From positions 9,638-73,637 of the forward strand of contig JBAZBJ010000001.1 in assembly GCA_041671525.1 (NCBI GenBank): a DNA stretch of 64,000 bases, read 5' to 3'. Below are positions 35,242 through 54,264 of the stretch, piece by piece (position 1 is the stretch's first letter; the number at the start of each line of letters is the position of its first letter). The notes beneath the pieces are model-generated. The model saw only the letters and a list, made by a program, of their open reading frames with translations. It was not told where the DNA came from and did no database searches. This stretch comes from Parcubacteria group bacterium (lineage in GTDB: Bacteria > Patescibacteriota > Minisyncoccia > Moranbacterales > UBA2206). The translations under genes and the position numbers were made by a program.

Positions 35242-35450
35242 TTTCTCAACTTTTTCTTTACCTTTTCTTTACCTCGTTTTGATACAATGGAAACATGATT
35301 CTTGGTCGAGGAATTATTTTTATCAAAATAATAACAATAAGAAAATGAAAAAGAAAATCATCAAGAAAATTTTGACAAGCAAAAAGCTTAGACATGCAGT
35401 CCCACTGAGCGCATTTGTGGTGTCAATCGCAAGCGTCGCTCAACCCTGGG

Positions 35451-36917
35451 ATGCCATATAAAACTATTAACGAGCAATCAATAAAAGACAGGGTCATCGG
35501 AGCCCGCATTTTTTTCAAGCGTCTTTTTGCAAAGGTTGCTCGTTTTTCGTATAAAAAATTACTAGAGTCAAAAGCTGTCCGTGAGGAGCAGCGTGGAAAA
35601 GAATTTATCCTCAATGTCATACTGATCAGTTCGATAGTCCTTTCCGGCATATTCAGCTTCCTTGCTTTTTTCGGTTCAATAACTGAAAGTCATTACAGTG
35701 GAATACCCATCGGAACAGCGACAATAGTCTTTGGATTTTTTCTGATACTCTATCTTTTATCAAGAAACAAATTGTTCATGATTTCTTCGTATTTGCTGGT
35801 TCTGACATTTTTTCTTTTCACCACATATACCGTGTACCGCTGGGGAGTTGAACTTCCTCAGGGACTGATAACATATGCGCTCATTATCGTAATAGCGGGG
35901 ATACTTGTCAGTGCCCGTTTTGCCTTCGAGATGACGTTTGTGATTTCATCGGTTGTTATCATTCTCACCTATTTCCAGATAAGCAATATCACGCATCCGA
36001 AACTATATTGGAAACCTGAAGCTTTAATGATGAATGATGCGGTTGAATTCGCCATTACCTTCATGATAATTTCCGTCGTGTCCTGGTTATATAACCGTGA
36101 AATAGCAAGCTCACTTAAACGGGCGATAAGATCAGAAGAAGAACTCAAAAAAGAACGGGACATGTTGGAGATAAGAGTTAGGGAAAGAACAGAGGAGCTG
36201 GAAAAGATCCAGGCGGAAAAGATGAACCAGGCCGCAAGATTCATAGAATTCGGCAAAATATCCTCGGGACTTTTTCACGATCTAATCAATCACATGACAT
36301 TCTTGTTTTTCAATATAGAAAAAGCCAGTGACTCCAGTCAGCAAGAGCTGGTTCAAATAAAAGAGCAGCTAAGGCAGGCAAACGAGACCAAAGACGTTTT
36401 AATGGATTACATAGATGCCGCAAAGAAACAAATTCAAAACCAAAAATCGGACTCGATGTTTTCAATGAAAAAAGAAATATTAAGTATTATTAAGATATTG
36501 GGATACAAGTTGAAAATAGAAAATGTCGAGATAAATCTTGCGGGCGAGTTCGATATCGTTACTTATGGAAATCCGATAAAATTCAATCAGATCATAATAA
36601 ACATAGTCTTGAACGCATTGGATGCTTATGAAAGTGGCGAACAGAAAGAGAGAAGCATAAACATAAATCTGAACAAGTCTGACGGCAATGCAGTGACCAT
36701 CATTGAAGATTGGGCAGGTGGAATACCGGAAGAAATAAAGGATAAAATATTCGAGCCATTTTTTACCACCAAGGGTCCTGAAAAAGGAGCAGGAATAGGC
36801 CTTACGACTGTGAAAAATATAGTCGAAGAAGAGTTTGGCGGGACAATAAGACTCGAAAGCGTCTTGGGACAAGGTTGCAAATTCATAATAGAAATACCAA
36901 TCAGAAATGAATCTTGA
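35451..36917 (+). CDS. sensor histidine kinase (multi-TM sensor domain)
   Basis: About 6 TM helices, coiled coil, H-box SSGLFHDLINHM, N-box NIVLNALDA, G1 EDWAGGIPEE, G2 GAGIGLT; start ATG 35451 or TTG 35415. Confidence 0.85.
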   Translation: MPYKTINEQSIKDRVIGARIFFKRLFAKVARFSYKKLLESKAVREEQRGKEFILNVILISSIVLSGIFSFLAFFGSITESHYSGIPIGTATIVFGFFLILYLLSRNKLFMISSYLLVLTFFLFTTYTVYRWGVELPQGLITYALIIVIAGILVSARFAFEMTFVISSVVIILTYFQISNITHPKLYWKPEALMMNDAVEFAITFMIISVVSWLYNREIASSLKRAIRSEEELKKERDMLEIRVRERTEELEKIQAEKMNQAARFIEFGKISSGLFHDLINHMTFLFFNIEKASDSSQQELVQIKEQLRQANETKDVLMDYIDAAKKQIQNQKSDSMFSMKKEILSIIKILGYKLKIENVEINLAGEFDIVTYGNPIKFNQIIINIVLNALDAYESGEQKERSININLNKSDGNAVTIIEDWAGGIPEEIKDKIFEPFFTTKGPEKGAGIGLTTVKNIVEEEFGGTIRLESVLGQGCKFIIEIPIRNES

Positions 36918-38868
36918 TAAGGACATAGAAAATGCTATATCTTCAGGTATTAATTACTTGAGCCAGAAACAAAAACGAGATGGAAGTTTTTCCAATCGTG
37001 TTTCGACTTCCAAAAATTTCAGTAGCTATGAAGAAAATCAATCCGCCTTTCCCACAAGTCTGATATTATCTAGTCTGAACAGTTTTCCGAATATGGGAGA
37101 ACTGGGAAAAATAAAGAATAATGTTTCAAAATTCATTTTGGGTCAGCGAAGCGAGTTTTGGTCATGGAATTATTGGAAAAGGAATTCTGCTGAAAGCAGT
37201 AAGTCGCCATATCCTGAAGACCTGGATGACACATGCTGCGCCGTGGCTGCTTTGACGGGATACGATTCCAAGTCCGTTTCCGCCGGAGCGATAGCCAAGG
37301 TAATTAATCTTCTGGCATACAGTGAAAGCAAGGAGGGCGGTCCGTATTTCACCTGGATCACTCCACCGGATGCGAACAAGGGCTGGAAGGACACAGACCT
37401 TGCAGTCAACAGCAATGTGGGCTACTTTCTTTCGCTTCAGGATGTGACTTTGCCGAGCATAGTCTCGCTTACAGAAAAAGCAATCGCTTCCGATAAATAT
37501 GATTCCCCGTATTATCATTCGGAGAATTCCGTGATTTATTTTATTTCCAGATGGTACAAGGGGAAAAAGAAAAGCAAGGCTCTTTCATATCTTCTTGAAA
37601 AGAGGCAATGCAACCACTCCTGGGGCAATCCATTGGAAACCGCATTGGCCATCAGTGCACTCATAAATTTCGGATACGAAAAAGAAAAACTAGAAAGAAG
37701 CATTGAATATATTTTACGACACCAAAAATCAGGTGGATGGAAAGAGCATCCGTTCGTAATAGAATTCATCAAAAAGAAGCGGAAGCATTATGCCGGCAGC
37801 TCAGAGTTGACGACCGCATTCTGTCTTGAAGCTTTGGGAAAATTTTCGACTCCGGACAAAAAAATGAAGAGCAAAGGAAAACTGGCAGACAGCAAGCAAC
37901 AAAAGATGCGCAAGAGAATAATCGAAATGTCAGATCGAAGATTTTCGGAATTAAGCTCCGAACTCTCGGAAAGTTTTTTGGCTGCCAGAAAGAAGATATT
38001 GAAAGGAGACAAAGGGGATCAGATAATGTTGCTGCCATATTATTTCCAAAAATCACTGGGGCAAAAAGAGATAGATGAACGCTTGATTGCGGAGCTGGGT
38101 GCCACCAGCCTTTACGGGTGGACAGCTTACACGATTTACGACGATTTTCTGGATGGCGAAGGAGATCCGAAACTTTTGTCTCTGGCAAACATTTGTCTCA
38201 GGGAATTGACTTCGATATATTCGGTGAATTTTTCGAATGACGAGAAGTTCCTTAGTTTCTTCGGAAAGATAATGGACAGGATTGATTCGGCCAATTCGTG
38301 GGAGGCATCAAATTGCCGGGCGAAAATAGTAGGCTCATGCCTGATGATTCCAGAAAGACTGCCGGAATACGAAAACATGGAAAAATTAGCCGACAGGTCT
38401 ATTGGGCACGCTCTTGGAGCAGCAGCGATTCTTTATCTGAATACGAATGAAACGGAATCAGAAGAAATGAAAAACTTAATTTCATTTTTTGAAAATTACA
38501 TCATAGCACGACAGCTTAACGATGATGCACATGATTGGGAGGAAGATTTGAAAAGAGGACAATTGAGTCCTGCAGTAGTTTCCGTTTTGAAGAGATATGC
38601 GAAACCGAATGCCTCCAAGAATAATGGAGAGTTGGATCTGAAAAAACAGCTGAAGCAATTGCAGAAAATATTCTGGTACGACGTCATCCATGAAATATGC
38701 GATAAAGCACTTTTTCATATTAAGGAGTCCAGAAAAAATCTGGAAAGTATTAAGGGGCTTAAGGACAAAGCCATCTTTGAAAGCATGCTTGGAGCCGTTG
38801 AAGAATCAGCCCAAAAAGCCGTTACTGAGCAAAAAGAAATGCTGGAGTTCCTGGAAGAATACAGGTAA
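36907..38868 (+). CDS. fusion protein: prenyltransferase/squalene-cyclase-like alpha/alpha toroid (DxDD) + class I terpenoid-synthase-like domain
   Basis: PEDLDDTCCA (DLDDT at 37219-37233); DDFLD (38140-38154); NDDAHDWEE (38518-38544), 126 aa after the DDxxD box; overlaps the kinase stop by 11 nt. Confidence 0.55.
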   Translation: MNLDKDIENAISSGINYLSQKQKRDGSFSNRVSTSKNFSSYEENQSAFPTSLILSSLNSFPNMGELGKIKNNVSKFILGQRSEFWSWNYWKRNSAESSKSPYPEDLDDTCCAVAALTGYDSKSVSAGAIAKVINLLAYSESKEGGPYFTWITPPDANKGWKDTDLAVNSNVGYFLSLQDVTLPSIVSLTEKAIASDKYDSPYYHSENSVIYFISRWYKGKKKSKALSYLLEKRQCNHSWGNPLETALAISALINFGYEKEKLERSIEYILRHQKSGGWKEHPFVIEFIKKKRKHYAGSSELTTAFCLEALGKFSTPDKKMKSKGKLADSKQQKMRKRIIEMSDRRFSELSSELSESFLAARKKILKGDKGDQIMLLPYYFQKSLGQKEIDERLIAELGATSLYGWTAYTIYDDFLDGEGDPKLLSLANICLRELTSIYSVNFSNDEKFLSFFGKIMDRIDSANSWEASNCRAKIVGSCLMIPERLPEYENMEKLADRSIGHALGAAAILYLNTNETESEEMKNLISFFENYIIARQLNDDAHDWEEDLKRGQLSPAVVSVLKRYAKPNASKNNGELDLKKQLKQLQKIFWYDVIHEICDKALFHIKESRKNLESIKGLKDKAIFESMLGAVEESAQKAVTEQKEMLEFLEEYR

Positions 38869-39105: not shown

Positions 39106-40887
39106 ATGGCAAATAACAAACAAAAACTAGAACTTACATGGATTGGAAAAGATAATTCTGAGTATGACATTGCCAACATTGAACCTCGTATTTTGGAAGA
39201 AAATGCAGACCTTTCTAATTGTGAGAAAGATCCCAACACTGAAAACATGATTATTCATGGGGATAACCTTCTTGCGCTTAAGGCACTCTTGCCAGAGTAT
39301 GAAGGCAAAATAAAATGTATCTATATGGATCCACCATATAATACTGGAAATGCATTTGAGCATTACGATGATAGTGTGGAACATAGTACATGGCTTTCTC
39401 TTATGAAGCCAAGATTGGAATTACTAAAAATGCTTTTGAGTGATGACGGAGTATTGTGCATACAATTAGATGATGTCGAGCAAGCTTATTTAAAAGTATT
39501 GCTTGATGAAGTATTCGGGCGATCAAATTTTATTAATCAAGTAAGTGTTAAAATGAAGCAGACGGCTGGCGCAAGTGGGGGCGGTGAAGATAAACGACTT
39601 AAAAAAAATATAGAGTACATATTAATTTATACAAAAAACTACCAAGCATTTCCAAAATTTAATGAGGTATTGGAAGAAGAAAATCTTTTTGATCTTATTA
39701 ATGAAATGAGAGATCAAGGTAAAAGTTGGAAATATACTAGGGTTTTTATGTCCATGGGGAGCCGTTCATTTTTCTCTGAAATACAGGACGGATCTGGATT
39801 ACCTATTAAAATTTACAAACACAGTGATGTTAAAATAAGTACCATACCTGAATTGATGAAAGCAGAGGGATTAACTGAAGAAGAAACTTACTTTAAATAT
39901 TTTGATAAAATATTTAGAGATACCAACGCTCAGAGTTCAATACGAACAAGGGTTATGGACGCAACAAAAGGCGCAGGGGATTTTTTTAGTATCGATTACG
40001 TTCCACGCTCGGGTAAATCTAAGGGTCAAACAGTAACCTCCTTTTACAAAGGCAATAATAGAGATTTAATTGCTTGGTTAAAGGATGTGGCAGTAAAGAA
40101 AAAAAATTCCATAGTAAAGCTAGAAAAACTTGGAACGTACTGGGAAGGTTTTCCTTTAAATAATTTAACGAAAGAGGGTGGAGTTTTATTCCCGAATGGC
40201 AAGAAGCCAGAAGCTCTAGTTCAAAGAATTTTGGACTTGATATCGAGTGAAGGCGATTTTGTACTCGATTCATTTCTTGGCTCAGGTACTACTACTGCAG
40301 TTGCGCATAAAACTGGAAGAAAGTATATAGGCATCGAAATGGGGGATCATGCATACACACATTGCAAAGTACGAATGGATAAGGTAATAGACGGATCGGA
40401 TCAAGGTGGTATAAGTAGAGCAGTCGAGTGGCAAGGTGGTGGTGGATATAAATTTTATGAACTGGCTCCAAGTTTTATTACTAAAGATGAATTTGGCAAT
40501 GCTGTAATTGATGTTTTTTATGATGATTCCAAACTCATCAAAGCAATGTGTAAGTTGATGAGCTTTGCTTATCAGCCAAGTAAAACAGAATATTGGAAAC
40601 ATGGTGTTGGGCAAGGAAAGAACTATCTTTATGTGACAACCCAACTTCTTACTAGTGGGATGATTCAACAAATTGCTGGACGTCTAACCGAAGGAGAGTC
40701 GTTGATTATTTGTCCCAAGAAATTTGAACCAGGTGCGGATAAAATTGATAGACGCATTACAATCAAAAAAATACCACAATCAATTTTAAAAGCATGTCAT
40801 TTTGGTAAAAAAGAATATCTACTTCCAATTAAAGAATCCGCTGTGGAAGAGATTGAAATTGAAGCGGAGGAAGATGATAACGAATAA
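39106..40887 (+). CDS. mod: Type III restriction-modification methyltransferase (Mod, N6-adenine, beta class)
   Basis: Motif IV CIYMDPPYNTG near N-terminus, motif I DSFLGSGTTTAVA near C-terminus; followed by overlapping res gene. Confidence 0.85.
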   Translation: MANNKQKLELTWIGKDNSEYDIANIEPRILEENADLSNCEKDPNTENMIIHGDNLLALKALLPEYEGKIKCIYMDPPYNTGNAFEHYDDSVEHSTWLSLMKPRLELLKMLLSDDGVLCIQLDDVEQAYLKVLLDEVFGRSNFINQVSVKMKQTAGASGGGEDKRLKKNIEYILIYTKNYQAFPKFNEVLEEENLFDLINEMRDQGKSWKYTRVFMSMGSRSFFSEIQDGSGLPIKIYKHSDVKISTIPELMKAEGLTEEETYFKYFDKIFRDTNAQSSIRTRVMDATKGAGDFFSIDYVPRSGKSKGQTVTSFYKGNNRDLIAWLKDVAVKKKNSIVKLEKLGTYWEGFPLNNLTKEGGVLFPNGKKPEALVQRILDLISSEGDFVLDSFLGSGTTTAVAHKTGRKYIGIEMGDHAYTHCKVRMDKVIDGSDQGGISRAVEWQGGGGYKFYELAPSFITKDEFGNAVIDVFYDDSKLIKAMCKLMSFAYQPSKTEYWKHGVGQGKNYLYVTTQLLTSGMIQQIAGRLTEGESLIICPKKFEPGADKIDRRITIKKIPQSILKACHFGKKEYLLPIKESAVEEIEIEAEEDDNE

Positions 40888-43711
40888 ACATATGATTCCA
40901 CAAGAAGCACTAAAATACATCAATGGCGCTATGAGTTTGCGTGCTCCACAAGTAAAAAGCTTAGAACTCTTTGCAAATTATTTGGAGTCACAATCTGGTC
41001 AGAAATTACTTGCACGCATGAAAAAGGAAACACGAGGTAATATTGCAGAGATTATGGCGGAAAGTAAAAAATATTTTAGTACTAAATCTGAAACCAAAGA
41101 ATTTGAAGAATTTGAGCGAGCTTTTCCTGCTTATACCCTTGCTTTAGCTACTGGCGTTGGAAAAACAAGATTAATGGGTGCTTTTGTGGCTTATTTATAT
41201 TTGGTTTATAACATACAGCATTTTTTAATCGTGGCACCAAACTTGACCATTTTCCGTAAACTACTTGAAGATTTTAGTAAGGCAAGTAATCCTAAGTATG
41301 TTTTTAAGGGTGTTCAGGAAATAAATCCGAATACTACAAAAATAATTACAACAGATAATTATACAAATCAGAGAGGAAAAACTCTTTTTGATAATCAGAT
41401 TGAAATCAATATTTTTAATATTCAACAATTTGCCCAGAAAGACATGACGAGTGAGCGTGGAATAACTAAAGCATGGGAAACTGCAGGTGAATCATATTTT
41501 GATTATTTGAAATCACATAATGATCTCGTGGTAATGCTAGACGAAGCTCATCACTATCATGCCGATGCTGCTCTTGGAGCATTGGATATACTCGACCCTC
41601 TCTTTGGCTTGGAAATGACCGCTACACCATATTTAGGCACGCGAGGTTCAGGGAAAAATGCAAGACAAATTAGAATGAAAAATGTTCTATATTCTTATAA
41701 TCTTGGTGATGCCATCAGGGGAAAATTAGTTAAGGATCCGTGGATAGGCACGGAGGCCGATGTGGATTTTGGTCAGTTTGATTCTGAATCAATTGAAACG
41801 GATGCGCGCAAGCTCCAATTGGCAGTATTTTTTCATGAGCGTGCAAAAAATGCATTGAGGGAATATGCATTGGAAAATAACGTGCCAAGAGTGAAACCAG
41901 TGTTATTAGTTGTTGCAAAAAACACTACTCACGCTGCAGAGTTGCGGGCCCTGATTGATAGTGATGATTTTCGCGGAGGAGAATTTAAGGGAAAAGTTAT
42001 TGAAATACATACTAAGCTTCATGGTGATGAAGCGGATGAAAATATTGAAAAATTAATTTCACTTGAACATCCTGATAACATAGTGGAAGTTGTGATTCAC
42101 GTTAACATGTTAAAAGAAGGATGGGATGTGACAAATGTCTATACGATTGCGCCATTGCGTGAATCTGCAGCTGCAATTTTAACTGAACAAACAATTGGGC
42201 GTGGATTGCGATTGCCATATGGAGAACGAACGGGAGTGCCATTAGTGGATAGACTAGTTCTTGTTGCTCATGAACAATTTGCTAAGGTTGTTGCACTTGC
42301 GAAAGATTCTCCATTGATCCAAGGTCAAGTAGAAGCAGTTTCAGAAGTAGAAGTCAAAGAAGTAAAAGTATTAACCGAGGTTCAATCGGTTGTTCTTGAT
42401 ACTGTTAAAGATGAAATAACTCACAACGAAGTAGTAATGGAAGAACTGCAAAAGAAAGCGGAAGAATTAGTTTCAGTCATTCCACGGATAGATGCAATGG
42501 ATATTGGTTTGCGAGAAAAATTTATTGCAACAAAAAAAGATGAATTAGTCGGAGACTTATCCAAGGAAACAATAAAAAATCTCACTTTTTCTAGCTATCA
42601 CGGTCAACAGTCTTCGCCAGCAAGTCCATCTTTTGTGACTGGGACTTTGTTTGGATCTTTTAGTGACGGAGCAAAAGATGAGCTTGCTAAAATTGCTCAA
42701 AAATCAGTAGAAACAATGGAGGAAAGAAATATTCCAATTCCGCGACTAACGATTACCCCACATTTTGGAGAACTTGTAATAAATTCATTTGACTTAGAAG
42801 CAAGTTTATTACATACATACACAAATGAACGTGCAATTCTTGAAGAGCAATTGCAAAATGATCGCGGAAAAAATTTGCTTGGCGAAGACGTTCCTGGGCG
42901 CCGAACGACAGAGATGACAAGGGTTAATAGTTTTGGTGCGAGCAATGGGCAAACTCCCCAAAGTGCTATTATTGGCGCGCTTTTAGATTTTCCATTAATA
43001 GATTATGATGATCCAAATCAAAAGGAATTATTGCTGAAATTGGCAGGACAGGCAGTGGGACATTATCGCTCAAAAGCGATTGATGAAGATAATCTGGCAT
43101 TGATTATTGATAGTAATGTCCACTCTATTGCTGAAGATATCAATAAACAAATTTTAGCACACCAAGAATTGAAATCTGAAAGTTATTTGGAATCTGAGGT
43201 GGAAGAACCAAAACCATATTTGGAGCAATATAATATTTCATTGTCCATTGGTGAAAAACCAGTTTCTCTTGAATCACAACTCAACACTTTTAGTGCTAAA
43301 TTTACTTACGGACAATTTCAAAGGGCATGTCATTCGATGTATCGCTTTGATTCTTCTGATGAAGTTCGATTAGCATATCTATTGGATAGTGATGAATCAG
43401 TGGAAGATTGGCTTCGACCAGCTCCGAACCAATTTGAGGGATTATATTGGCGTAATGTGGAGGGTGAATCGCACCGCTATGAACCTGATTTCGTTGTGGA
43501 ATTTGAAAGTGAGATAGTTATGATTGAAGTAAAGCCAGAATTAGAAATTCATGATTTAAGCGTGCAAGCAAAAAAACAAACTGCAGAAAAGTATTGTGAG
43601 GTAGTCAATAAGAATATTGGAAAGTTTGGGATAGTAAAGCCTTGGAGATATGTGATTATTCCAACGGAAAAAATTACAATCCAGTCGACAGTGGCAAGTT
43701 TAGCGATTTAA
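40874..43711 (+). CDS. res: Type III restriction enzyme Res subunit (SF2 helicase + C-terminal PD-(D/E)xK nuclease)
   Basis: Helicase motifs LATGVGKTR, MLDEAHHY, NMLKEGWDV, QTIGRGLRL; C-terminal YEPDFVVEFESEIVMIEVKPE; ATG 40874 overlaps mod stop by 14 nt (alternative ATG 40892). Confidence 0.85.
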   Translation: MITNKHMIPQEALKYINGAMSLRAPQVKSLELFANYLESQSGQKLLARMKKETRGNIAEIMAESKKYFSTKSETKEFEEFERAFPAYTLALATGVGKTRLMGAFVAYLYLVYNIQHFLIVAPNLTIFRKLLEDFSKASNPKYVFKGVQEINPNTTKIITTDNYTNQRGKTLFDNQIEINIFNIQQFAQKDMTSERGITKAWETAGESYFDYLKSHNDLVVMLDEAHHYHADAALGALDILDPLFGLEMTATPYLGTRGSGKNARQIRMKNVLYSYNLGDAIRGKLVKDPWIGTEADVDFGQFDSESIETDARKLQLAVFFHERAKNALREYALENNVPRVKPVLLVVAKNTTHAAELRALIDSDDFRGGEFKGKVIEIHTKLHGDEADENIEKLISLEHPDNIVEVVIHVNMLKEGWDVTNVYTIAPLRESAAAILTEQTIGRGLRLPYGERTGVPLVDRLVLVAHEQFAKVVALAKDSPLIQGQVEAVSEVEVKEVKVLTEVQSVVLDTVKDEITHNEVVMEELQKKAEELVSVIPRIDAMDIGLREKFIATKKDELVGDLSKETIKNLTFSSYHGQQSSPASPSFVTGTLFGSFSDGAKDELAKIAQKSVETMEERNIPIPRLTITPHFGELVINSFDLEASLLHTYTNERAILEEQLQNDRGKNLLGEDVPGRRTTEMTRVNSFGASNGQTPQSAIIGALLDFPLIDYDDPNQKELLLKLAGQAVGHYRSKAIDEDNLALIIDSNVHSIAEDINKQILAHQELKSESYLESEVEEPKPYLEQYNISLSIGEKPVSLESQLNTFSAKFTYGQFQRACHSMYRFDSSDEVRLAYLLDSDESVEDWLRPAPNQFEGLYWRNVEGESHRYEPDFVVEFESEIVMIEVKPELEIHDLSVQAKKQTAEKYCEVVNKNIGKFGIVKPWRYVIIPTEKITIQSTVASLAI

Positions 43712-43736: not shown

Positions 43737-44474
43737 ATGAATACATTCAAGCAATCAGCAATTGAAGTGCTGAAAAAAGCAGGAAAGCCTTTGCATTATA
43801 CTGAAATCACTCGGTTAGCTTTGGAATCGGGAATTTTGGAAACTGAGGGTGCAACGCCTGAATCTTCAATGAACGCCCAAATTACAGTAGATATCAAAAA
43901 CAAGGGCAAAGGCTCGGATTTCATGAAAACCGCACCCGGAACTTTTACACTTAATCATGATAAAAAAGAGGTAAAGCAAACACCTAAAATTATAGAAGCC
44001 GAAAAAGAGGCGGAAGAGAGGCTGGTAGTCGAAAGCGGATTCACCGGAAAAGGCGGAGAGCATCTGGTTTGCAGTGAACTTCTTTTTCGCGGTTTCAACG
44101 CTAGTATCATGAGTGTGGATGTCGGAATGGATATTGTGGCAGTAAAAGGAAATCAGCTCTTCGGAATACAGGTAAAAACTTCAAATCTGAATCGTTTCGA
44201 TACATATGTTTTTGATATTCGGAAAGTATCATTCGAGCGTCACAGTAGTGGCAGCATATTTTACATATTTGTTTTACATGGAGAAAAACAGAACCGTTTT
44301 TTGATTTTGCCTTTTCTTGAAATAGAAAAGAAGGTTCATGAAAAAGCAATATTGGAAGTGGGTCAAGGCAAGCGCTATCGTGTGAATATTAAATTCAGGA
44401 ATGATCATGTATATCTGGGGAACAAGGAACATGAAATGGGATATTTTTTGGATAACTGGAATTCGATAAAATAG
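43737..44474 (+). CDS. HARE-HTH domain fused to a PD-(D/E)xK-like nuclease domain
   Basis: N-terminus FKQSAIEVLKKAGKPLHYTEITRLALESG...TPESSMNAQITVDI...GTFTL (HARE-HTH pattern); C-terminal GEHLVCSELL...DVGMDIVAV...GIQVKTS. Confidence 0.55.
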   Translation: MNTFKQSAIEVLKKAGKPLHYTEITRLALESGILETEGATPESSMNAQITVDIKNKGKGSDFMKTAPGTFTLNHDKKEVKQTPKIIEAEKEAEERLVVESGFTGKGGEHLVCSELLFRGFNASIMSVDVGMDIVAVKGNQLFGIQVKTSNLNRFDTYVFDIRKVSFERHSSGSIFYIFVLHGEKQNRFLILPFLEIEKKVHEKAILEVGQGKRYRVNIKFRNDHVYLGNKEHEMGYFLDNWNSIK

Positions 44475-44526: not shown

Positions 44527-46536
44527 ATGATTAGTAATACTTCAAAATTAAAAATTTTTGGCATAATCAATGAGATCTTTCACAACAGATTCTTTTTATT
44601 AGTGTTTTTTGGTCTAATCTTTGTCTCGCTAAACTGGTTTTTTGTTGGAAATCTTTTTCCAGATCCTGATGTTTTAAACCTTTGGTTTTATTCGGGTATT
44701 TTTATGGTTTTATTTTCACTTCTTTTTATCGAGCCTTACTATACTTCTCCCAAAAATGTAATTACAAATGCCGTTCCATTATTACTTGTTTTTCTTTCAA
44801 TAAAAAGCAGTTTTGAAAATAAATTTCCATGGTGGCTTGCAATGACTATTCTTCTGTCGCTTCTAATTGCGTCAATAGTTGCGATTGCCTTAGAGGATAA
44901 AAACAAAAGCCCCGAACACAACAAAAATAAGATTGCCGAATGGTTAAAAAATTTTGTTGTTTTGTTTGGTCAAGGCAAAATTTTATATTCAGCAGTTTTC
45001 CTTTATTTTCTTTTTACGTATTATTCAACGCAAAACACCTATACATTAATTTTGCTTATCATTTGGTTTTTTATTTTAGCAATAGATCCAAAAAAGATAA
45101 AAAGCACATTTATTATAAATACCAAAGAATTATCTGAGAATGCAATCGGTGAAATTTTTGGTGTTCAATCCAAGAAGATTTTCCTGGTTAAACTTTTTGA
45201 TGATAGGAAGGGTATTTTGAAATTTGATATTGTTAAGTTTAGGTATTCAATGCAAGATTCAAATGATTTTTTAATGTCAGGTATTGTTTTTGATACGTAT
45301 CTGCTTAATCAAGAGAAATGGGCAAAGATTCTACAATTAGGCAAAATAGCAAAAAACAGCTCTGGTTCTGAAAAAAATGTTGTCTATAAAGTATCCGATA
45401 AGGAAGAAATCTCTACCTTAGAAAAAGAACTGCGTACAGACAATTTTGTAGGTATAGTGATTGAGGGTTCAAATATAGGAAAGATTAAATTTGAATACTC
45501 AAAAAAACAAGATGATCTACAAGAGGGAGATTTGGTTGAATTAAGAACCAATGGTAGAAGATTATTTTATCAAGTAGTTAATGGCGTCACTGAAAAAGAA
45601 AGTCTTGAACATCGAAATGAAACTGGTTTTATCAAGGGCGAGGCAATTCAACTCGGAGAATGGATAAATGACGAGCTGTCCTTTCAAAAGTATGGTTGGG
45701 TTCCATCTATTAATATCCCAATTTTTAAAGCGGATACGTCCGATATTGAGGTAAAAAGTTTTAAATATCCTGATTACAAACTCGGAATAATTCCGAATAC
45801 ATCATTGCCATCCGTTATTAATTTGGCTGATGCTGTTAGTCACCATATGGCACTTCTTGGGGTCACTGGATCAGGAAAATCTTTTCTTGCGCGCGAAATT
45901 ATAAATCAACTCAAGCAAGACACTAAGGTTATTTGCATTGATTTTACTGGTGAATGGGAAAAAGAATTGAATAAATATGATATCAAAAATACACTATTAG
46001 GTGGTGCGAATATTAATAATTTTTTGGAAAATGATGAAGGAAAAGTTGGTATTGTTGGATTGTCAGCCATGTCTAATACTTCTGAAGTAATACAGCAAAC
46101 AGAAAAACTATTTGAAACTATATTTAATTTTGCAAAAGAAAAATACAATCAAAACACGCCGGTTAAAATATCATTAGTACTCGAAGAGGCACACACTATT
46201 ACTCCGGAAACTTCCTTTTTGGGAGACCTTGGAGATTATGGATCCAATAAAGCTTTAGTTAATAAGATGAGTCAGGTTGCTTTGCAAGGAAGAAAATATG
46301 GAGTTGGAATGATGATTATTGCTCAAAGAACTGCAAATGTCTCCAAAACAGTTTTGACTCAATGCAACACAGTAATTTGTTTTCAAGCATTTGACGAAAC
46401 TAGTTTTAATTTCTTAGGAAACTATGTTGGCAAGGATCTTGTTTCAACTCTTCCAAATTTAAAACAATATCATGCAATTGTTACTGGCAAGGCAATAAAA
46501 TCAAATGTCCCTATGATTATTGATCTAAAAAGATAA
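44527..46536 (+). CDS. membrane-anchored HerA/FtsK-like (DUF87-type) ATPase
   Basis: About 6 N-terminal TM helices; Walker A LLGVTGSGKSF, Walker B ISLVLEEAH, MMIIAQRTANVSK...VICFQ typical of HerA-clade ATPases. Confidence 0.65.
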   Translation: MISNTSKLKIFGIINEIFHNRFFLLVFFGLIFVSLNWFFVGNLFPDPDVLNLWFYSGIFMVLFSLLFIEPYYTSPKNVITNAVPLLLVFLSIKSSFENKFPWWLAMTILLSLLIASIVAIALEDKNKSPEHNKNKIAEWLKNFVVLFGQGKILYSAVFLYFLFTYYSTQNTYTLILLIIWFFILAIDPKKIKSTFIINTKELSENAIGEIFGVQSKKIFLVKLFDDRKGILKFDIVKFRYSMQDSNDFLMSGIVFDTYLLNQEKWAKILQLGKIAKNSSGSEKNVVYKVSDKEEISTLEKELRTDNFVGIVIEGSNIGKIKFEYSKKQDDLQEGDLVELRTNGRRLFYQVVNGVTEKESLEHRNETGFIKGEAIQLGEWINDELSFQKYGWVPSINIPIFKADTSDIEVKSFKYPDYKLGIIPNTSLPSVINLADAVSHHMALLGVTGSGKSFLAREIINQLKQDTKVICIDFTGEWEKELNKYDIKNTLLGGANINNFLENDEGKVGIVGLSAMSNTSEVIQQTEKLFETIFNFAKEKYNQNTPVKISLVLEEAHTITPETSFLGDLGDYGSNKALVNKMSQVALQGRKYGVGMMIIAQRTANVSKTVLTQCNTVICFQAFDETSFNFLGNYVGKDLVSTLPNLKQYHAIVTGKAIKSNVPMIIDLKR

Positions 46537-46544
46537 TAGCTTAT

Positions 46545-48062
46545 ATGAAATTATCAAAAACAAACTTTCTGATATGCCTCGATTGTGCAAAAAATGCTTG
46601 GTTGAAAATTCACAAGCCGGAGGTATATAAGAAAAAGGCACTTTCTTCTTTTGAGTTGAATATTATTGATACCGGAAATCAAATTGATGAACTTGCACGT
46701 GGTCTTTTCCCCGGTGGAATTCTTGTTGAAAACCGCGATGATGCAGAACGTACAAGAAAGCTCTTGAAAGAAAAGACTGCTGTGATTTATCAGCCTGTTT
46801 TTGCAACTGAAAAATATCTTGCAGTCGCTGATATTTTCGTCTTTAACACGAATACAAATGCTTATGATCTATATGAGGTGAAATCATCAACAATTTCGGA
46901 AGAGAGTGGGGGAAGAAAAACTGAAGATTATTTGATAGACATGGCTTTTCAAAAGAATGTTCTGAATGATTTGAGTATTGAGGTTGGAACTCTTAATTTG
47001 ATTAGGCTTAATAAAAAATATGTTCGTTCTGGCGACATTAACTTAAAAGAACTATTTTTTATAGAGGACTTAACTAATAAGGTAAATGAGAAACTAAAGG
47101 ATATTAAGCAGAAAATGGAAGGAGCCTATGAGCTGTTATCCAGCGAAGATGAGCCAAGGGGCAATTGCGATTGTATCTTGAAAGGAAAAAATGCGCATTG
47201 TACTACTTCTTGGTATTCAAATTCTGATTTGCCAGAATATTCCGTTCATTCAATTTCAAGAATCGGCACTAACAAGAAAAAATTGGCCGAGTTGGTGGAC
47301 GGTGGAATTTTAAGTATTTATGATGTGCCTGCTGATTTCAAATTATCTGACAATCAAAGAAGGCAGGTGGATACGGCGCAGTCTGGCAAGGAATATATTG
47401 ATAAAAAAGGCATTGCTGAATTTTTAGGAACGATGAAATATCCATTGTCATTTCTTGATTATGAAACATACCCATCAGCTTTGCCAAGATATAATGGGTA
47501 CAGTCCATATCAGCAAATAACTTTTCAATTTTCACTGCATGTGATTGACTCACACGAGAGCGAATTGGAACATTATGATTTTATCTATACCGATCAAGGT
47601 TGTCCTGATGAAAGTTTTGCAAAAGCACTGGAAAAGCATCTCCCTAAAACAGGAAGTGTTATTGTTTGGAATCAGAGTTTTGAAAAAAGCAGAAATGAGG
47701 AAATCGGGAAGCACTTGCCGGAGTATCGTAATTTTATGCAAAGTGTAAACAATAGAGTTGTTGACCTGATGATTCCATTTTACGGAAAAACCACAATGTA
47801 TGATCATCCAGAATTCAAGGGAAGTGCTTCAATAAAATATGTTTTGCCGGCTCTTGTTCCTCATCTTTCATATAAAGATTTGCATATTCAAGAAGGTGGT
47901 ACCGCATCAGATACTTGGAATCGCATTGTGTCAGGGGAATATTCTGAAGATGAAAAAAATATGAAAGTGCAGGCGCTCAAAAATTATTGCCATCTTGATA
48001 CTTTAGCTATGGTTGAAATTTGGAGGAAGTTGAAATCAGTTAAAAAAGATTTTTTAGAATAA
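46545..48062 (+). CDS. DUF2779-like protein: Cas4/RecB-like PD-(D/E)xK nuclease + RNase-H-fold (DEDD-like) exonuclease
   Basis: N-terminus MKLSKTNFLICLDCAKNAWLK; ADIFVF...YDLYEVKSS; Cys cluster CLDC...CDCILKGKNAHC; FLDYETY, VWNQSFEKSRNEE, HLDTLAM. Confidence 0.55.
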   Translation: MKLSKTNFLICLDCAKNAWLKIHKPEVYKKKALSSFELNIIDTGNQIDELARGLFPGGILVENRDDAERTRKLLKEKTAVIYQPVFATEKYLAVADIFVFNTNTNAYDLYEVKSSTISEESGGRKTEDYLIDMAFQKNVLNDLSIEVGTLNLIRLNKKYVRSGDINLKELFFIEDLTNKVNEKLKDIKQKMEGAYELLSSEDEPRGNCDCILKGKNAHCTTSWYSNSDLPEYSVHSISRIGTNKKKLAELVDGGILSIYDVPADFKLSDNQRRQVDTAQSGKEYIDKKGIAEFLGTMKYPLSFLDYETYPSALPRYNGYSPYQQITFQFSLHVIDSHESELEHYDFIYTDQGCPDESFAKALEKHLPKTGSVIVWNQSFEKSRNEEIGKHLPEYRNFMQSVNNRVVDLMIPFYGKTTMYDHPEFKGSASIKYVLPALVPHLSYKDLHIQEGGTASDTWNRIVSGEYSEDEKNMKVQALKNYCHLDTLAMVEIWRKLKSVKKDFLE

Positions 48063-48063
48063 T

Positions 48064-48798
48064 ATGAGAAATGAAGAATTAAGTGATAAAACAATAAATG
48101 AAATATGCAAACTCCCTTGTCGCATGTGTGATTTAGGGACTAATCATATTGTTTTAAAATCAATCGAAAATCATTGGTTAGAGGATGAGGCGGAGATATA
48201 TGGATGGGATAAATTTGAAATTGTGAAGTGTCAAGGATGTGATCAAATATCTTTTCGTTCCATAACGAGTTGTTCAGAGGATTATGCTACTGACTGTGAG
48301 ACTGGGGATATGATTTATTTAGAGCGTGAGAAGCTTTATCCTGGTAGGATTATTGGGAGAAAAAGCCTGGATGATGTTTATTTTTTGCCATTTGAAATAA
48401 GGGGTATGTATAACGAGACGCATGGAGCTATGTGTGCCAAACTAAATGTTTTATCGGGGGCAGGAGTAAGAATTTTAGTTGAATCAATATGCAAACAACA
48501 GAATGCAGAAGGTAAAGACCTAGAAAAAAGAATTGATGATTTAGTCTTAAAGGGGGTATTAACAAATCAAGAAGCTGAAACTTTGCACGGCACGAGAATG
48601 TTAGGAAATAGATCTGTGCATGAAATTATTACTCCGAAGGATGTTGAGTTGGATATTGCAATGGATATTGTAGAGAATTTAATTAGAAAGGTTTATATAA
48701 TACCGAAAAAAGCGGAAAAACTTCCAAAGCGAATAAATAGAAAAATAGCTCCGAAGGTTGAACCTTCGGAAAAAATAGATGAGGAAATAGCTAAGTAA
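48064..48798 (+). CDS. zinc-ribbon + DUF4145-like protein
   Basis: CRMCDLGTNH...CQGCDQISF ribbon; C-terminal helical domain ...AGVRILVESICK...LHGTRMLGNRSVHE resembling DUF4145. Confidence 0.5.
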   Translation: MRNEELSDKTINEICKLPCRMCDLGTNHIVLKSIENHWLEDEAEIYGWDKFEIVKCQGCDQISFRSITSCSEDYATDCETGDMIYLEREKLYPGRIIGRKSLDDVYFLPFEIRGMYNETHGAMCAKLNVLSGAGVRILVESICKQQNAEGKDLEKRIDDLVLKGVLTNQEAETLHGTRMLGNRSVHEIITPKDVELDIAMDIVENLIRKVYIIPKKAEKLPKRINRKIAPKVEPSEKIDEEIAK

Positions 48799-49022: not shown

Positions 49023-49772
49023 ATGCCACCTAGTGAACGAAATACTAAAATTGTGATTACTGAATCGGGAAACAGATGCGCTTTTTCTTTTGGAAAAGAG
49101 ATTTGCAATGAGATTTTAGTAAAAGAAAATAATGGTGGAGGAGTTGCTTTTATCGGTGATATCGCCCATATAAAGGGTGAAAATGAGGGATCAGCTAGAT
49201 ATGATGAAAATATGGTCAAGGGGGATAGAAATAACTCCGAAAATCTTATGGTGTTGTGTAAAAATCATCATAAGACTATAGATGACCAAGAAGATGTTTA
49301 TACAGTCGAAGTATTATTGAAAATGAAAGACAATCATAGAAAATGGGTAATTGATAAAACCAATAAGGCACTTCCCGAAATAACGTTTATTGAACTTGCG
49401 ACTGTTACTCAATTTTTAATGAGAAACGCATCCCCAGTTGATGTCATAGAGGGAATTTGCCCCAAGGACAAAATTAAAAAGAATGGCTTGAGTGCTGAAG
49501 TTGAAAATCAAATCACGATGGGAATGTCTAGGGTGAGGCTTGTTCAAAATTATATAAGCCAATCACTGGATTCTGAATTCGGTGAAAAACTAAAGCAAGG
49601 ATTTATTACTGAATACGGCAGGTTAATATCTGATGAGAAACTTCAAGGAGATGATGTTTTCGATAGTTTGTTAGATTTTGCTTCAAACAGTAGTGGCGAC
49701 TTTAAGAATAGAGCTGCTGGACTCGCAGTTCTCACATATTTTTTTGAGCAATGTGATATTTTTGAAAAATGA
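49023..49772 (+). CDS. HNH endonuclease effector with C-terminal helical domain (ABC-3C-type effector)
   Basis: GDIAHIKGENEG...NNSENLMVLCKNHHKTID = H-N-H; first gene of a three-gene set ending with a DUF2326-like ATPase. Confidence 0.6.
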   Translation: MPPSERNTKIVITESGNRCAFSFGKEICNEILVKENNGGGVAFIGDIAHIKGENEGSARYDENMVKGDRNNSENLMVLCKNHHKTIDDQEDVYTVEVLLKMKDNHRKWVIDKTNKALPEITFIELATVTQFLMRNASPVDVIEGICPKDKIKKNGLSAEVENQITMGMSRVRLVQNYISQSLDSEFGEKLKQGFITEYGRLISDEKLQGDDVFDSLLDFASNSSGDFKNRAAGLAVLTYFFEQCDIFEK

Positions 49773-49996: not shown

Positions 49997-51748
49997 ATGC
50001 GAATTTTTTCAGTAAAATCAGACAGAGAAACATTCAAGGAGGTTATATTGGAACCTGGATTTAATGTTGTATTGGCGGAAAGAACAAAGGAATCTTCAAG
50101 TAGGGATTCAAGAAACGGTCTGGGAAAATCATCACTGATTCATATTATTCGATTTTGTTTGGGCAGTGGTATAAATAAAACTCTTGAGAGCGAGAAGCTT
50201 GCTGATTGGACCTTTACACTAGATATTGAATTGGGAGGTAAAAATTACTCCATATCAAGGAATACCGGAAATAAAAATAAGATTATTATTGATGGTGATT
50301 GCTCTGATTGGCCAATAAGGCCAGAGGTTGATTCTTTTGCTGGCAGAAGTAGGCAAATAATGAGCGTTACTGATTGGGTTAAAGTTTTAGGAAAATTATC
50401 ATTCGATATGAATTTTTCATATCCTGATTTTAGTTACGTCCCTACTTTCGGTAGTTGTAGAGCCTATTTTATTAGGAATAGCGAGGAAGGTGGAATGCTA
50501 GATCCATTTAAACAAAGAGGTAACCAATTAGAATGGGACAAACAGATAAACAATGCCTTTTTATTGGGCTTAGACTGGACATATGCAAGTAAATGGCAGG
50601 TTTTGAAAGATAGAAAGAAAATTATAAATCAGCTAAAGAATGAGGCACAAAGTGGGATGCTTAAGGATATGGAGGGAAGCATTGGAGAGCTAGAGGCTAA
50701 AAAGATAAGATTGGAGAATGAAATAGTCAAGCAGGCGGAGCAACTAAAAAATTTCAATGTCCACCCTCAATATCAGGAAATAGAAAGAGAAACTAATGAT
50801 ATTACTGTAAAAATCCACGACCTTTCAAACGATAATATTAGTGATAAAAGTCTTTTGGGTTATTATGAAAATAGCTTTGAAGAGGAAGGGGATGTTGATG
50901 TAAATATCGTAAATAAAGTCTATGAAGAGGCTGGTGTTGTCTTGCCTAATGGTGTTAAAAAAAGACTTGAGGATGTTAAGGAGTTTCATAAAAAAATAAT
51001 TGTTAACAGAAAAGATTTTCTTGTTTCTGAGATTGCTCGATTAAAAGAAAATTTTAGCAGAAGAGATAATGAAAAATTGAATCTATGTGAAAGGCGGAAA
51101 GAATTGTTTGAGATATTGAATTCCCATAAAGCCTTAGATGAATATACGAAAATGCAACAGTATGCGCTGAAATTAACAAGTGAGTTTAATGATATTTCAA
51201 AAAGGATAGATAATCTTAAAAGGTTTGAACAAGGAAAAAGTGCGCTAAAAATAGATTTGGAATTAGTACAACAAGAGGCGAGGGTTAGCTTGGATGAAAG
51301 AAGTGAGATTAAAAATAAAGCCATTAACCAATTTAATGTTAATTCCGAGATACTTTATGAATCTCCAGGAAATCTTTCGATAGATGTTTCTTCGAATGGA
51401 TATGAATTTGGTGTGACCATTGAGAGAGAGGGAAGCCACGGAATAAAAAATATGAAGATTTTATGTTATGATATTATGCTTTCAAAATTGTGGGCCGATA
51501 AGGGGATGTCTTTCCCATTAATTCACGATAGTGTTCTTTTTGCAGATGTGGATGAAAGACAAGTAGCTTTAGCATTGGAATTGGCAGTTAAAGAATCAGA
51601 AAGCAGAGGATTTCAGTATATTTGTACGCTAAACTCAGATACTATTCCTTATAATGACTTCAGTAAAGGATTTGATATAAATAAATTTGTTAGAAAAACA
51701 TTTACAGACTCGAGCGAAGACGGTGGTTTATTTGGTATACGTTTTTAG
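49997..51748 (+). CDS. ABC/SMC-like ATPase with long coiled-coil insert (DUF2326/YydD-like)
   Basis: N-terminal FNVVLAERTKESSSRDSRNGLGKSSLIHII P-loop region, about 250-aa coiled coil, C-terminal PLIHDSVLFADVDERQ (Walker B/D-loop-like). Confidence 0.6.
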   Translation: MRIFSVKSDRETFKEVILEPGFNVVLAERTKESSSRDSRNGLGKSSLIHIIRFCLGSGINKTLESEKLADWTFTLDIELGGKNYSISRNTGNKNKIIIDGDCSDWPIRPEVDSFAGRSRQIMSVTDWVKVLGKLSFDMNFSYPDFSYVPTFGSCRAYFIRNSEEGGMLDPFKQRGNQLEWDKQINNAFLLGLDWTYASKWQVLKDRKKIINQLKNEAQSGMLKDMEGSIGELEAKKIRLENEIVKQAEQLKNFNVHPQYQEIERETNDITVKIHDLSNDNISDKSLLGYYENSFEEEGDVDVNIVNKVYEEAGVVLPNGVKKRLEDVKEFHKKIIVNRKDFLVSEIARLKENFSRRDNEKLNLCERRKELFEILNSHKALDEYTKMQQYALKLTSEFNDISKRIDNLKRFEQGKSALKIDLELVQQEARVSLDERSEIKNKAINQFNVNSEILYESPGNLSIDVSSNGYEFGVTIEREGSHGIKNMKILCYDIMLSKLWADKGMSFPLIHDSVLFADVDERQVALALELAVKESESRGFQYICTLNSDTIPYNDFSKGFDINKFVRKTFTDSSEDGGLFGIRF

Positions 51749-53670: not shown

Positions 53671-54264
53671 ATGAAGACAATTATTTTTGATTTTGATGGT
53701 GTAATTCATGATACTTTTGAATTGGCATATAAAATTAACGTTGAGCTTTTTGGCAAGCAATTGACTGAAGAAAATTACAGAGATTTTTTCAATGGGAATA
53801 TTTTTGAAAGTGCAAAGGTTACCAAGGATGATAATGATAAATTTTTCAAATTGCAAAATGAAGCATTTAAGTATTTAAAGATAGACGAAAGTATTAAACA
53901 GCATCTAGAAAAATTAGCTGAAGAGTATTCATTGTTCATCATTTCTTCCAATCAAGAAGAGGCACTGGACACCTATTTTCAAAATAATAATTTCACTCAT
54001 ATCTTCAAGGAAATATTAGGAGCAGAAACGCATCAATCTAAAGTGGAAAAATTCAAGTATCTATTTGAGAAATATAACCTAGAGGCTGATGATTGTATTT
54101 TTGTTACAGATACGTTGGGTGATATATTGGAGGGCAATAAAGTAGGCGTCAGAACAATTGCGGTAGATTTTGGTTTTCACAAACGAGACAGACTTGAAAA
54201 GGGAAAACCTTTCAGGATAGTCTCAAGTTTTGATGAAATATTAGAAGTAATAAAAAACGTGTAA
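53671..54264 (+). CDS. HAD-superfamily hydrolase
   Basis: Motif I IIFDFDGVIHDT, motif II IISSN, motif IV FVTDTLGD. Confidence 0.75.
   Translation: MKTIIFDFDGVIHDTFELAYKINVELFGKQLTEENYRDFFNGNIFESAKVTKDDNDKFFKLQNEAFKYLKIDESIKQHLEKLAEEYSLFIISSNQEEALDTYFQNNNFTHIFKEILGAETHQSKVEKFKYLFEKYNLEADDCIFVTDTLGDILEGNKVGVRTIAVDFGFHKRDRLEKGKPFRIVSSFDEILEVIKNV

Follow-up and report, generated by a model that had tools for sequence, protein, structure and literature searches.

Introduction

The closest described relatives of the ATPase considered here are the HerA proteins of SIR2-HerA (Nezha/Gao19) and DUF4297-HerA, two-gene systems of defence islands in which a HerA built from a HAS-barrel and a RecA-like ATPase carries a separate, soluble enzymatic effector on the N-terminal (HAS) face of its ring. 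The present analysis concerns a 64,000-nucleotide (nt) stretch of DNA from a Parcubacteria group bacterium (the window), in which three adjacent genes encode a HerA-clade ATPase with an N-terminal transmembrane (TM) domain, hereafter TM-HerA, a DUF2779 dual nuclease and a protein of the RAZR/PD-T7-4 family. An initial annotation had proposed that these genes form one uncharacterised module that pairs a membrane HerA with DUF2779. The comparisons below do not support this proposal, and the 4.3-kb stretch is better read, with a probability of about 0.7, as the junction of three evolutionarily independent units than as one operon-encoded system. The system represented by the third gene and the architecture of the second are known already; TM-HerA is a candidate new HerA-based defence variant riding restriction-modification (R-M) operons.

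The three open reading frames (ORFs) span 44527-48798, all on the + strand, with intergenic gaps of 8 nt and 1 nt, as the initial annotation had stated and as the sequence confirms (lengths in amino acids, aa; cargo and framework assignments as predicted below):

44527..46536, + strand: TM-HerA (gene 1), 669 aa; last gene of the left-hand cargo
46545..48062, + strand: DUF2779 dual nuclease (gene 2), 505 aa; framework gene between two variable hot spots
48064..48798, + strand: RAZR/PD-T7-4-family protein (gene 3), 244 aa; opens the right-hand cargo

The motifs quoted from these genes are likewise all present (GVTGSGKS, VLEEAH, ADIF...DLYEVKS, CLDC, CDC-x8-C, FLDYETY, WNQSFEKS, HLDTLAM and RMLGNRSVHE), the AT-rich setting is borne out by a GC content of 0.33-0.35 in the region against about 0.45 upstream, and PADLOC places a Type III R-M system on one side and an ABC-3C-type pair on the other. 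Each of the three proteins matches, at 100% identity, a database entry labelled Parcubacteria.

TM-HerA belongs to the same HerA clade as SIR2-HerA and DUF4297-HerA, which provide its best sequence and fold matches (8wiv, 8woc, 8xau, 9c1m, 8ziq). It differs from them in that a six-helix membrane domain is fused at the place where the effector docks, and in Pfam and PADLOC scans no SIR2 or DUF4297 effector gene was found beside it, either among its neighbours in the window or among 123 neighbours of its orthologues; the distant matches L018-L039, by contrast, do have SIR2_2 (loci compared are designated L and a number). With HerA-NurA it shares the HerA fold (4d2i, 9x1m) and a DNA-end nuclease as an occasional operon partner. 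However, no NurA accompanies TM-HerA, whose partner, if any, is of the Cas4 family, and whereas HerA-NurA is linked to mre11-rad50, TM-HerA is membrane-anchored, horizontally mobile and R-M-linked. PrrC and other genes embedded in Type I operons (PMC12707154; bioRxiv 10.1101/2024.01.29.577857) resemble TM-HerA in that an ATPase gene lies between hsd genes and is co-transcribed with them, although PrrC joins an ABC-type ATPase to an anticodon nuclease and belongs with Type IC systems, whereas TM-HerA joins a HerA ATPase to a membrane domain and occurs with every R-M type. The HerA/FtsK "capture" systems DndH and BRC are also pumps tied to R-M-like machinery, and have been proposed to intercept or reposition invader DNA (PMC10853773, PMC12839542); however, these are multi-domain or multi-gene soluble assemblies with Orc/Cdc6, restriction endonuclease (REase) and PglZ components, and no membrane-anchored stand-alone HerA is described among them. 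FtsK/SpoIIIE, VirD4/TraD and the archaeal Ced importer share with TM-HerA an N-terminal membrane domain on a ring ATPase of the FtsK-HerA superfamily, but TM-HerA differs from them in being of the HerA clade with a HAS-barrel, in lacking the FtsK alpha/gamma domains and in having no conjugation or division context. A search of the literature found nothing on a membrane HerA, and the preprint of Payne et al. on embedded genes contains no HerA or DUF87 in its text and only generic P-loop matches in its supplement.

Comparative Context of the Three Genes

Orthologues of TM-HerA at 50-82% identity were collected from many phyla at 17 genome loci and 22 metagenome loci (39 in total, 34 non-redundant). 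The trio recurs in none of the 34 other non-redundant HerA loci; a DUF2779 gene is adjacent in one of the 34 and a gene 3 homologue in none, such that the three families do not co-occur elsewhere in this sample. By tblastn against all 39 loci, gene 2 gave one match (L004, upstream of HerA, 40% identity) and gene 3 gave no homologue; a weak DUF4145-like protein precedes TM-HerA in L003. The converse comparison agrees, as no HerA lies beside close homologues of DUF2779 (seven contexts) or of gene 3 (three contexts).

For gene 2, the call of a dual nuclease with a Cas4-like and an RNase-H-fold half was right. Its Pfam match to DUF2779 (2.8e-38) scores 131.5 bits against a cut-off of 23.3; its N-terminal half (aa 1 to about 230) matches Cas4 4r5q (Foldseek probability 1.0) and MGME1 in a model of pLDDT 92, and its C-terminal half (aa ~295-505) is RNase H-like, with weak Foldseek matches to RNase H and integrase cores. 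Among 51 homologues, D96, D108/E111/K113 and C14/C208/C210/C219 are invariant, as are the DEDDy residues D305, E307, E380, Y481 and D485. This Cas4-like plus DEDD architecture has been published for DUF2779/UU173/MMSYN1_0389 (PMC3985635, PMC13621843), a family in which the same fusion of PD-(D/E)xK and DEDD(y) domains is found and the catalytic D, ExK and DEDD residues are conserved. The branch of gene 2 within the Candidate Phyla Radiation (CPR) keeps the four-cysteine cluster, whereas the Mycoplasma protein has partly lost it. The Mycoplasma homologue is quasi-essential, which fits a housekeeping role, and DUF2779 is probably a housekeeping DNA-end-processing nuclease. Within its family, gene 2 is distinctive in marking the border of a defence hot spot here.

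That border can be traced in its relatives. Among the best 120 DUF2779 homologues (66-100% identity), all of those with a named organism are from CPR bacteria. Seven homologues at 70-88% identity, all CPR, were examined in context (nine DUF2779 contexts in all), and what precedes DUF2779 differs among these seven distinct arrangements: the triplet EcoRI-methylase/GmrSD-HNH/PDC-S06 in L093 and L095; the EcoRI-methylase/GmrSD-HNH pair with a 919-aa SMC-like ATPase in L112 and with Gabija GajA-GajB in L114; a Type IIG methylase, HARE-HTH and DUF3644 in L099; RhuM, MazG, a Schlafen-type helicase and SocA in L102; and a large serine recombinase with genes like those of integrative and conjugative elements in L104. 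The genes 3' of DUF2779 vary too. In contrast, the gene on the far left of the island in the window, of 653 aa, has a counterpart (62% identity over 120 aa) in L093, where it stands ahead of the different cargo that leads up to DUF2779. L099 shares the HAD gene on the right, which it carries 3' of its own DUF2779 at 72% identity. From gene order, the simplest reading is a backbone of the 653-aa gene, DUF2779 and HAD with two hot spots, of which the first would be filled here by the Type III R-M system, HARE-HTH and TM-HerA, and the second by the RAZR-like gene, the ABC-3C pair and others. On this reading the hot spot with the R-M system and TM-HerA would be bounded on its left by the conserved 653-aa gene, and DUF2779, judged by the same synteny, would be a vertically conserved framework gene of this Parcubacteria lineage, flanked by variable defence and mobile DNA. 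The DUF2779 neighbourhood may also be an integration target in CPR genomes; in L104 (4285-12427), where helix-turn-helix (HTH), RadC, ArdC-like, SRAP and relaxase genes lie downstream, the gene content indicates that DUF2779 lies within, or borders, an integrative mobilisable element.

Gene 3 is likewise accounted for separately. The earlier call of a zinc ribbon with DUF4145 was correct (Pfam DUF4145 2.4e-14; PADLOC PD-T7-4 1.5e-8 over aa 46-226), and the relationship of DUF4145 to HEPN is borne out by the literature (PMC3710099). Among 26 homologues, the Cys4 ribbon C19-x2-C22...C56-x2-C59 is invariant or nearly so, R178 is at least 90% conserved and H186 is invariant, and the spacing of this R-x7-H motif (i+8) is that of R146/H154 in RAZR-Ec (PMC13017515). 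PD-T7-4, renamed RAZR, is a stand-alone abortive-infection RNase activated by assembly on phage portal-like rings (PMC13017515). The phage ring proteins concerned are portal/Gp77, and the RNA cleaved is ssRNA. Gene 3 shares with RAZR the ribbon, the C-terminal DUF4145 HEPN domain with R and H eight apart and the single-gene organisation, although its sequence is remote from that of the E. coli protein. Homologues at 50-61% identity are solitary genes, of which one follows dnaK, another follows a Ymh-family gene and a third overlaps uvrB at its end. By its sequence features, gene 3 can thus be assigned to the known single-gene system RAZR/PD-T7-4, so that one member of the proposed module already belongs, alone, to a named system (PMC13017515).

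It is nonetheless necessary to ask whether the trio could be a real three-component module of this lineage, in which translocase, dual nuclease and HEPN RNase act together. The genes share a strand, are separated by 8 nt and 1 nt with no intervening terminator-like site, and all three are plausible nucleic-acid-targeting defence parts. However, there is no second instance in 34 HerA loci, nine DUF2779 contexts or three gene 3 contexts, the family of gene 3 works alone (PMC13017515), and synteny assigns the genes to different evolutionary units. The tight spacing, which the initial annotation took as evidence for an operon, says little, as DUF2779 abuts whatever unrelated gene precedes it by 1-93 nt in CPR relatives (7 nt after GajB, 15 nt after the SMC-like ATPase), and a gap of 8 nt is therefore unremarkable. 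Such a module is considered highly improbable. In compact CPR genomes, tight co-directional spacing is no evidence of a functional module, and a conserved gene such as DUF2779 between two defence hot spots can look like part of either.

Several points do weigh against a junction of independent units. The three genes are almost certainly co-transcribed here. A terminator scan found no + strand terminator-like site inside the trio; a promoter scan found fewer promoter-like sites than in shuffled sequences. Out of 35 loci, the window and L004, both from CPR bacteria, have DUF2779 adjoining TM-HerA, and these two, together with four loci bearing a solo Cas4-like gene, may by their gene arrangement reflect a facultative HerA-nuclease partnership. 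The framework status of DUF2779 is drawn from two flank genes and nine contexts, and DUF2779 may instead be a component with which all such islands end. In addition, the sample of TM-HerA loci is metagenome-heavy and many contigs end near the gene.

The TM-HerA Protein

The initial annotation had described gene 1 as a HerA ATPase with about six N-terminal TM helices, and this was upheld by its hydrophobic segments, an AlphaFold2 (AF2) model and Foldseek. Six hydrophobic segments lie within aa 20-189 (nt 44584-45093) and fold as helices in the model (pLDDT 85-92), and the loops, from sequence, obey the positive-inside rule for an N-in/C-in topology, which is what a cytoplasmic ATPase requires. 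Five to six N-terminal hydrophobic segments are present in 103 of 122 full-length family proteins (gene 1 and 121 representatives), which makes TM segments a family-wide feature. A beta-rich HAS-barrel region follows at about aa 200-420 (nt 45124-45786; aa 206-420 in the AF2 model), and then the RecA-like HerA ATPase at aa 421-669 (nt 45787-46533). The Walker A (G445-x2-G-x-G-K451) and Walker B (E553-E554) motifs, R589, R601 and K607 are at least 99% conserved across the 122 proteins.

Matches of the domains to Pfam DUF87/HerA (5.8e-13) and PADLOC HerA (2e-30) are accompanied by PDB sequence matches that are all HerA (8xau, 8wiv, 9c1m, 4d2i). The top 50 Foldseek matches are likewise all HerA or HerA-like chains, from SIR2/HerA, HerA-NurA, DUF4297-HerA and TdpAB, with SIR2/HerA 8woc best (1.4e-19), followed by HerA-NurA 9x1m and 4d2i; alignments to the HerA chains 8wiv, 9x1m, 4d2i and 8xau extend over 470-570 columns (E 1e-19 to 1e-15). 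In the model, the soluble part (residues ~200-669) is a complete HerA. Weak matches were also recorded to TrwB_AAD_bind around the P-loop (6.9e-5) and to NCBIfam CedD (2.6e-10), and none to Pfam FtsK_SpoIIIE. Gene 1 falls below the NCBIfam equivalog cut-offs for HerA_antiphage (70.9 bits against 800) and HerA_antiphage_2 (66.6 against 850). Neither PADLOC nor NCBIfam has a model specific for TM-HerA, and both return partial HerA matches only.

Distribution and Restriction-Modification Setting

The TM-HerA family comprises at least 419 clusters at 50% identity (E<=1e-30), and was absent from 50,697 phage records scanned. Close relatives (60-82% identity) are in records labelled Parcubacteria, CPR3, Roizmanbacteria, Legionella pneumophila, Phycisphaerae and Melioribacteraceae, a spread that indicates horizontal movement. 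A Pfam scan of the 123 nearest neighbours in the 34 non-redundant loci found that the 17 commonest families all belong to R-M systems, including ResIII (11), N6_Mtase (8), Methylase_S (8), N6_N4_Mtase (7), HSDR_N (7), Eco57I (6), the D12 methyltransferase (4), DpnII (3), GmrSD_N (3) and AlwI (2). Of 33 informative loci (window counted), 24 have TM-HerA within an R-M operon or immediately behind one, and the accompanying systems are of types I, II, IIS, IIG, III and IV:

Beside Type I R-M: L007, L012, L016, L045, L046, L048, L050, L052, L054
Beside Type III R-M: window, L040, L041
Beside Type IIS AlwI: L001, L058
Beside DpnII: L002, L006, L047
Beside DpnI: L042
Beside EcoO109I and a C5 methylase: L003
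Beside a PLD-type REase and a methylase: L049
Beside Type IIG and SNF2: L014
Beside GmrSD: L004, L011
With a DNA-methyltransferase fragment directly upstream: L044

In L007 the order is hsdM-HerA-hsdS-hsdR with 4-nt overlaps, and L012, L045 and L048 also hold TM-HerA between hsd genes. The complete Arcobacter plasmid CP146529 carries a 29%-identical homologue with six TM segments, embedded in a Type I operon between hsdM/S and hsdR, and on an Aminobacter plasmid a family member lies between AbiE and two reverse transcriptases. About a quarter of the informative loci have no R-M gene nearby (L005, L010, L015, L043, L055, L057, L061).

DNA homology between the window and the 39 loci is limited to 44565-46544 (within the TM-HerA ORF), and TM-HerA copies sharing 80% identity stand behind Type III systems that are not orthologous; together these show that TM-HerA moves as a single-gene cassette. 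No flanking repeats or other mobile-element signature were found around the cassette, and no transposase recurs among the 123 neighbours. A gene pair for an EcoRI-type adenine methyltransferase and a GmrSD_N/HNH protein recurs in L011, L093, L095, L112 and L114; the two L011 proteins match their counterparts in the other four loci at 50-60% and 38-40% identity, respectively. The slot after this pair is taken by TM-HerA in L011, and by PDC-S06, the SMC-like ATPase or GajA-GajB elsewhere, which gives the pair the look of an R-M-like core whose back-up module can be exchanged. The occupants of this third slot are thus PDC-S06 (PrrC-like AAA_13), the 919-aa SMC-like ATPase, Gabija and TM-HerA, with L011 being a gammaproteobacterial metagenome-assembled genome and the others CPR.

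DNA-end enzymes lie directly downstream of TM-HerA in eight of the 34 loci: XseA/XseB in L011 and L050, Pif1 in L004, DUF2779 in the window, and in four loci a solo Cas4-like gene. The solo Cas4-like genes are 59% identical, begin 4-10 nt after TM-HerA and stand behind different R-M systems; the loci are as follows:

L016, 12027-14254: solo Cas4-like gene after TM-HerA
L041, 7996-8330: solo Cas4-like gene after TM-HerA
L046, 7967-8238: solo Cas4-like gene after TM-HerA
L053, 2043-2792: solo Cas4-like gene after TM-HerA

A weaker theme of HerA plus a Cas4-family nuclease therefore survives in a minority of loci, four with solo Cas4-like genes and two with DUF2779. The solo protein, of about 250 aa, has a PD-(D/E)xK core and CxxC...CDxC cysteines of Fe-S type. 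Direct similarity between it and DUF2779 was sought and rejected (BLASTP E 0.15). In L016 the solo Cas4-like gene overlaps a PDC-M36A homologue by 4 nt.

Some further arrangements were observed in passing. The Type I operon of the Arcobacter plasmid (L116, CP146529.1, 51254-65619) has at least five genes embedded between hsdM/hsdS and hsdR, among them RhuM, a second hsdS, a hypothetical gene, a SLATT-domain gene, the DUF87 TM-HerA homologue and an "RNA-binding" (Schlafen/AlbA-like) protein, and is followed by a SprT protease and an integrase. In three marine contigs (L013, L043, L059), TM-HerA is not beside R-M genes but is preceded by a conserved 166-aa protein (e.g., L043 5450-5950) whose ORF ends abutting or overlapping it; this protein has no Pfam or PADLOC match and may be an alternative TM-HerA partner. 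In L012 (2184-4189) and L010 (10004-12058), two ORFs that overlap or adjoin take the place of a single TM-HerA ORF, owing either to a frameshift or pseudogene or to an assembly error. Loci L018-L039 and L062-L092 were considered as a second HerA/Type III family and rejected, as they are ordinary SIR2-HerA (with DUF2130) that match the C-terminus of the ATPase only; the arrangement DUF2130-SIR2-HerA-mod-res recurs there in many Beta- and Gammaproteobacteria (L018-L039, e.g., L021 7067-16082).

Possible Functions of TM-HerA

TM-HerA is a real, undescribed defence-island family, and its members are most likely autonomous defence proteins embedded in R-M operons. In the window, TM-HerA would come last in a replaceable cargo (Type III mod and res, HARE-HTH, TM-HerA) between the 653-aa gene and DUF2779. 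In the proposed model, six TM-HerA subunits would assemble beneath the membrane into a HerA ring whose HAS-barrel face bears the 36 TM helices. SIR2, DUF4297 and NurA dock at the HAS-barrel face in solved HerA complexes, and as the TM domain is fused at that end, it is a plausible effector or conduit. The ATPase ring would engage invading or restriction-cut DNA ends at the inner membrane, whereupon the TM assembly may provide the output, either as membrane permeabilisation (abortive infection) or as a conduit, in a second defence line independent of the accompanying R-M system. As the R-M partners share no protein architecture, TM-HerA more likely reads DNA (ends, or incoming DNA at the membrane) than a particular R-M enzyme. 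With partners so diverse, a lock between two specific proteins, as in a guardian that its R-M enzyme silences and that is released when this enzyme is inhibited, is less likely. Most genes embedded in defence operons are defences in their own right (bioRxiv 10.1101/2024.01.29.577857), the classic guardian inside an R-M operon being PrrC (PMC12707154); on these precedents, an autonomous second-line defence with a membrane output is favoured, albeit tentatively and at somewhat below an even chance. Stated as a class, TM-HerA may couple the fate of invading DNA to pore opening or DNA conduction through a hexameric ring and a 36-helix membrane assembly, triggered by restriction ends or failed restriction, as a type-agnostic second layer for R-M systems with optional help from Cas4-family nucleases; in this full form the proposal is speculative.

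There are considerations that count against the functional part of this scheme. The mechanism is one that we infer, and the mean top-residue frequency across the family is 0.32 in the TM domain against 0.50 in the ATPase, which also fits a simple anchor. Moreover, Type III mod/res genes lie nearby in eight of 22 genome loci of ordinary SIR2-HerA, so that R-M adjacency, being common there as well, is alone no proof of functional coupling. Embedded and overlapping arrangements weigh more than mere adjacency.

An alternative scenario would have TM-HerA act as a capture helper, that is, as a membrane-anchored double-stranded DNA pump that seizes incoming DNA or restriction ends at the entry site and hands them over both to the restriction enzyme and to nucleases that process ends (Cas4-like, DUF2779, ExoVII or host enzymes), acting on DNA and without a specific protein partner. 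The presence of TM-HerA in operons with all R-M types, the DNA-end enzymes directly downstream in eight of 34 loci, the occurrence of HerA-NurA and TdpAB among the structural matches and the concept of a "HerA/FtsK capture system" (PMC10853773) are consistent with such a role. However, the quarter of informative loci with no R-M gene nearby is difficult to reconcile with it, TM-HerA is often last in its operon without a nuclease partner, and xseAB may be a core gene beside the insertion site; the scenario is possible but doubtful. A narrower variant proposes a two-gene system of TM-HerA and a Cas4-family nuclease, a bacterial membrane counterpart of HerA-NurA in which DUF2779 is the nuclease here, such that the HerA-DUF2779 pairing would be functionally right though not conserved by family. 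The 59%-identical solo Cas4-like gene 4-10 nt behind TM-HerA in four independent loci is in its favour, as are the Cas4-like N-terminal domain of DUF2779, with the same cysteine pattern, and its position beside TM-HerA in the window and L004. Yet 28 of 34 loci have no adjacent Cas4-family gene, DUF2779 homologues at 70-88% identity lack HerA in all seven further CPR contexts, the two nucleases share no detectable similarity (BLASTP, as above), and both DUF2779-adjacent cases are from CPR bacteria, where DUF2779 borders defence islands anyway. This variant is accordingly considered unlikely.

TM-HerA might also have no defence role and hitch-hike in mobile R-M cassettes as a transporter that moves DNA across the membrane in uptake, export or the transfer of elements, in analogy with FtsK/SpoIIIE, type IV coupling proteins or the archaeal Ced importer. 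CPR bacteria rely on DNA uptake, the combination of an N-terminal polytopic membrane domain with a ring ATPase parallels known DNA pumps, and the weak matches to TrwB_AAD_bind and CedD point in the same direction. However, no conjugation, competence, relaxase or type IV secretion system families recur among the 123 neighbours, in sequence and fold the protein is closest to HerAs of defence and repair rather than to FtsK or VirD4, TM-HerA takes the same slot as Gabija and PDC-S06, and one plasmid copy sits in a defence island beside AbiE and reverse transcriptases, all of which make a transporter quite improbable. If TM-HerA is instead a functional defence protein, as the preferred reading holds, it would extend the HerA-based systems by one that has a membrane domain fused on as its effector, and would represent a clean single-gene module that plugs into every R-M type. 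It would then bear on the question of how first-line restriction is backed up by, or coupled to, later immunity. The family is present in cultured hosts, namely in a Legionella pneumophila record and on the Arcobacter plasmid.

Flanking Genes and Island Setting

The remaining genes of the island in the window are as follows:

36907..38868, + strand: left framework gene, 653 aa; weak squalene-cyclase-like repeat (Pfam SQHop_cyclase_C 1.1e-6, below family cut-offs)
39106..40887, + strand: Type III R-M methyltransferase (mod), left-hand cargo; PADLOC MTase_III 3.2e-138, Pfam N6_N4_Mtase 1.7e-43
40802..43711, + strand: Type III R-M restriction subunit (res), left-hand cargo; PADLOC REase_III 1.1e-120, Pfam ResIII 2.7e-20
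43737..44474, + strand: HARE-HTH protein, R-M-associated DNA-binding, left-hand cargo; Pfam HARE-HTH 4.2e-18
49023..49772, + strand: PDC-M68A (HNH+CTD10), right-hand cargo; PADLOC 9.2e-71, Pfam CTD10, HNH_2
49997..51748, + strand: PDC-M68B (DUF2326), right-hand cargo; PADLOC 1.9e-180, Pfam DUF2326
53671..54264, + strand: HAD hydrolase, right-hand framework gene; Pfam HAD_2 1.2e-22

The C-terminus of res has a TnsA-like endonuclease fold, and its true start probably lies downstream of the listed TTG. The N-terminus of the HARE-HTH protein has a 51%-identical counterpart after the Type IIG methylase in L099; as a HerA partner this protein was rejected, as it is missing from all other TM-HerA loci. 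PDC-M68A and PDC-M68B constitute an ABC-3C-type candidate system that lies outside the trio.

Directly upstream of the island, at 27130-33984, is a phage-like block of genes for a replication-initiation O-like protein, two DNA methyltransferases (one ParB-fused) and both terminase subunits, small and large (PHROGs terL 2e-103); genes for a response regulator and a histidine kinase come next, at 34462-36917. The block may represent the remains of a prophage, or else a phage-related mobile element, that carries or abuts the defence island.

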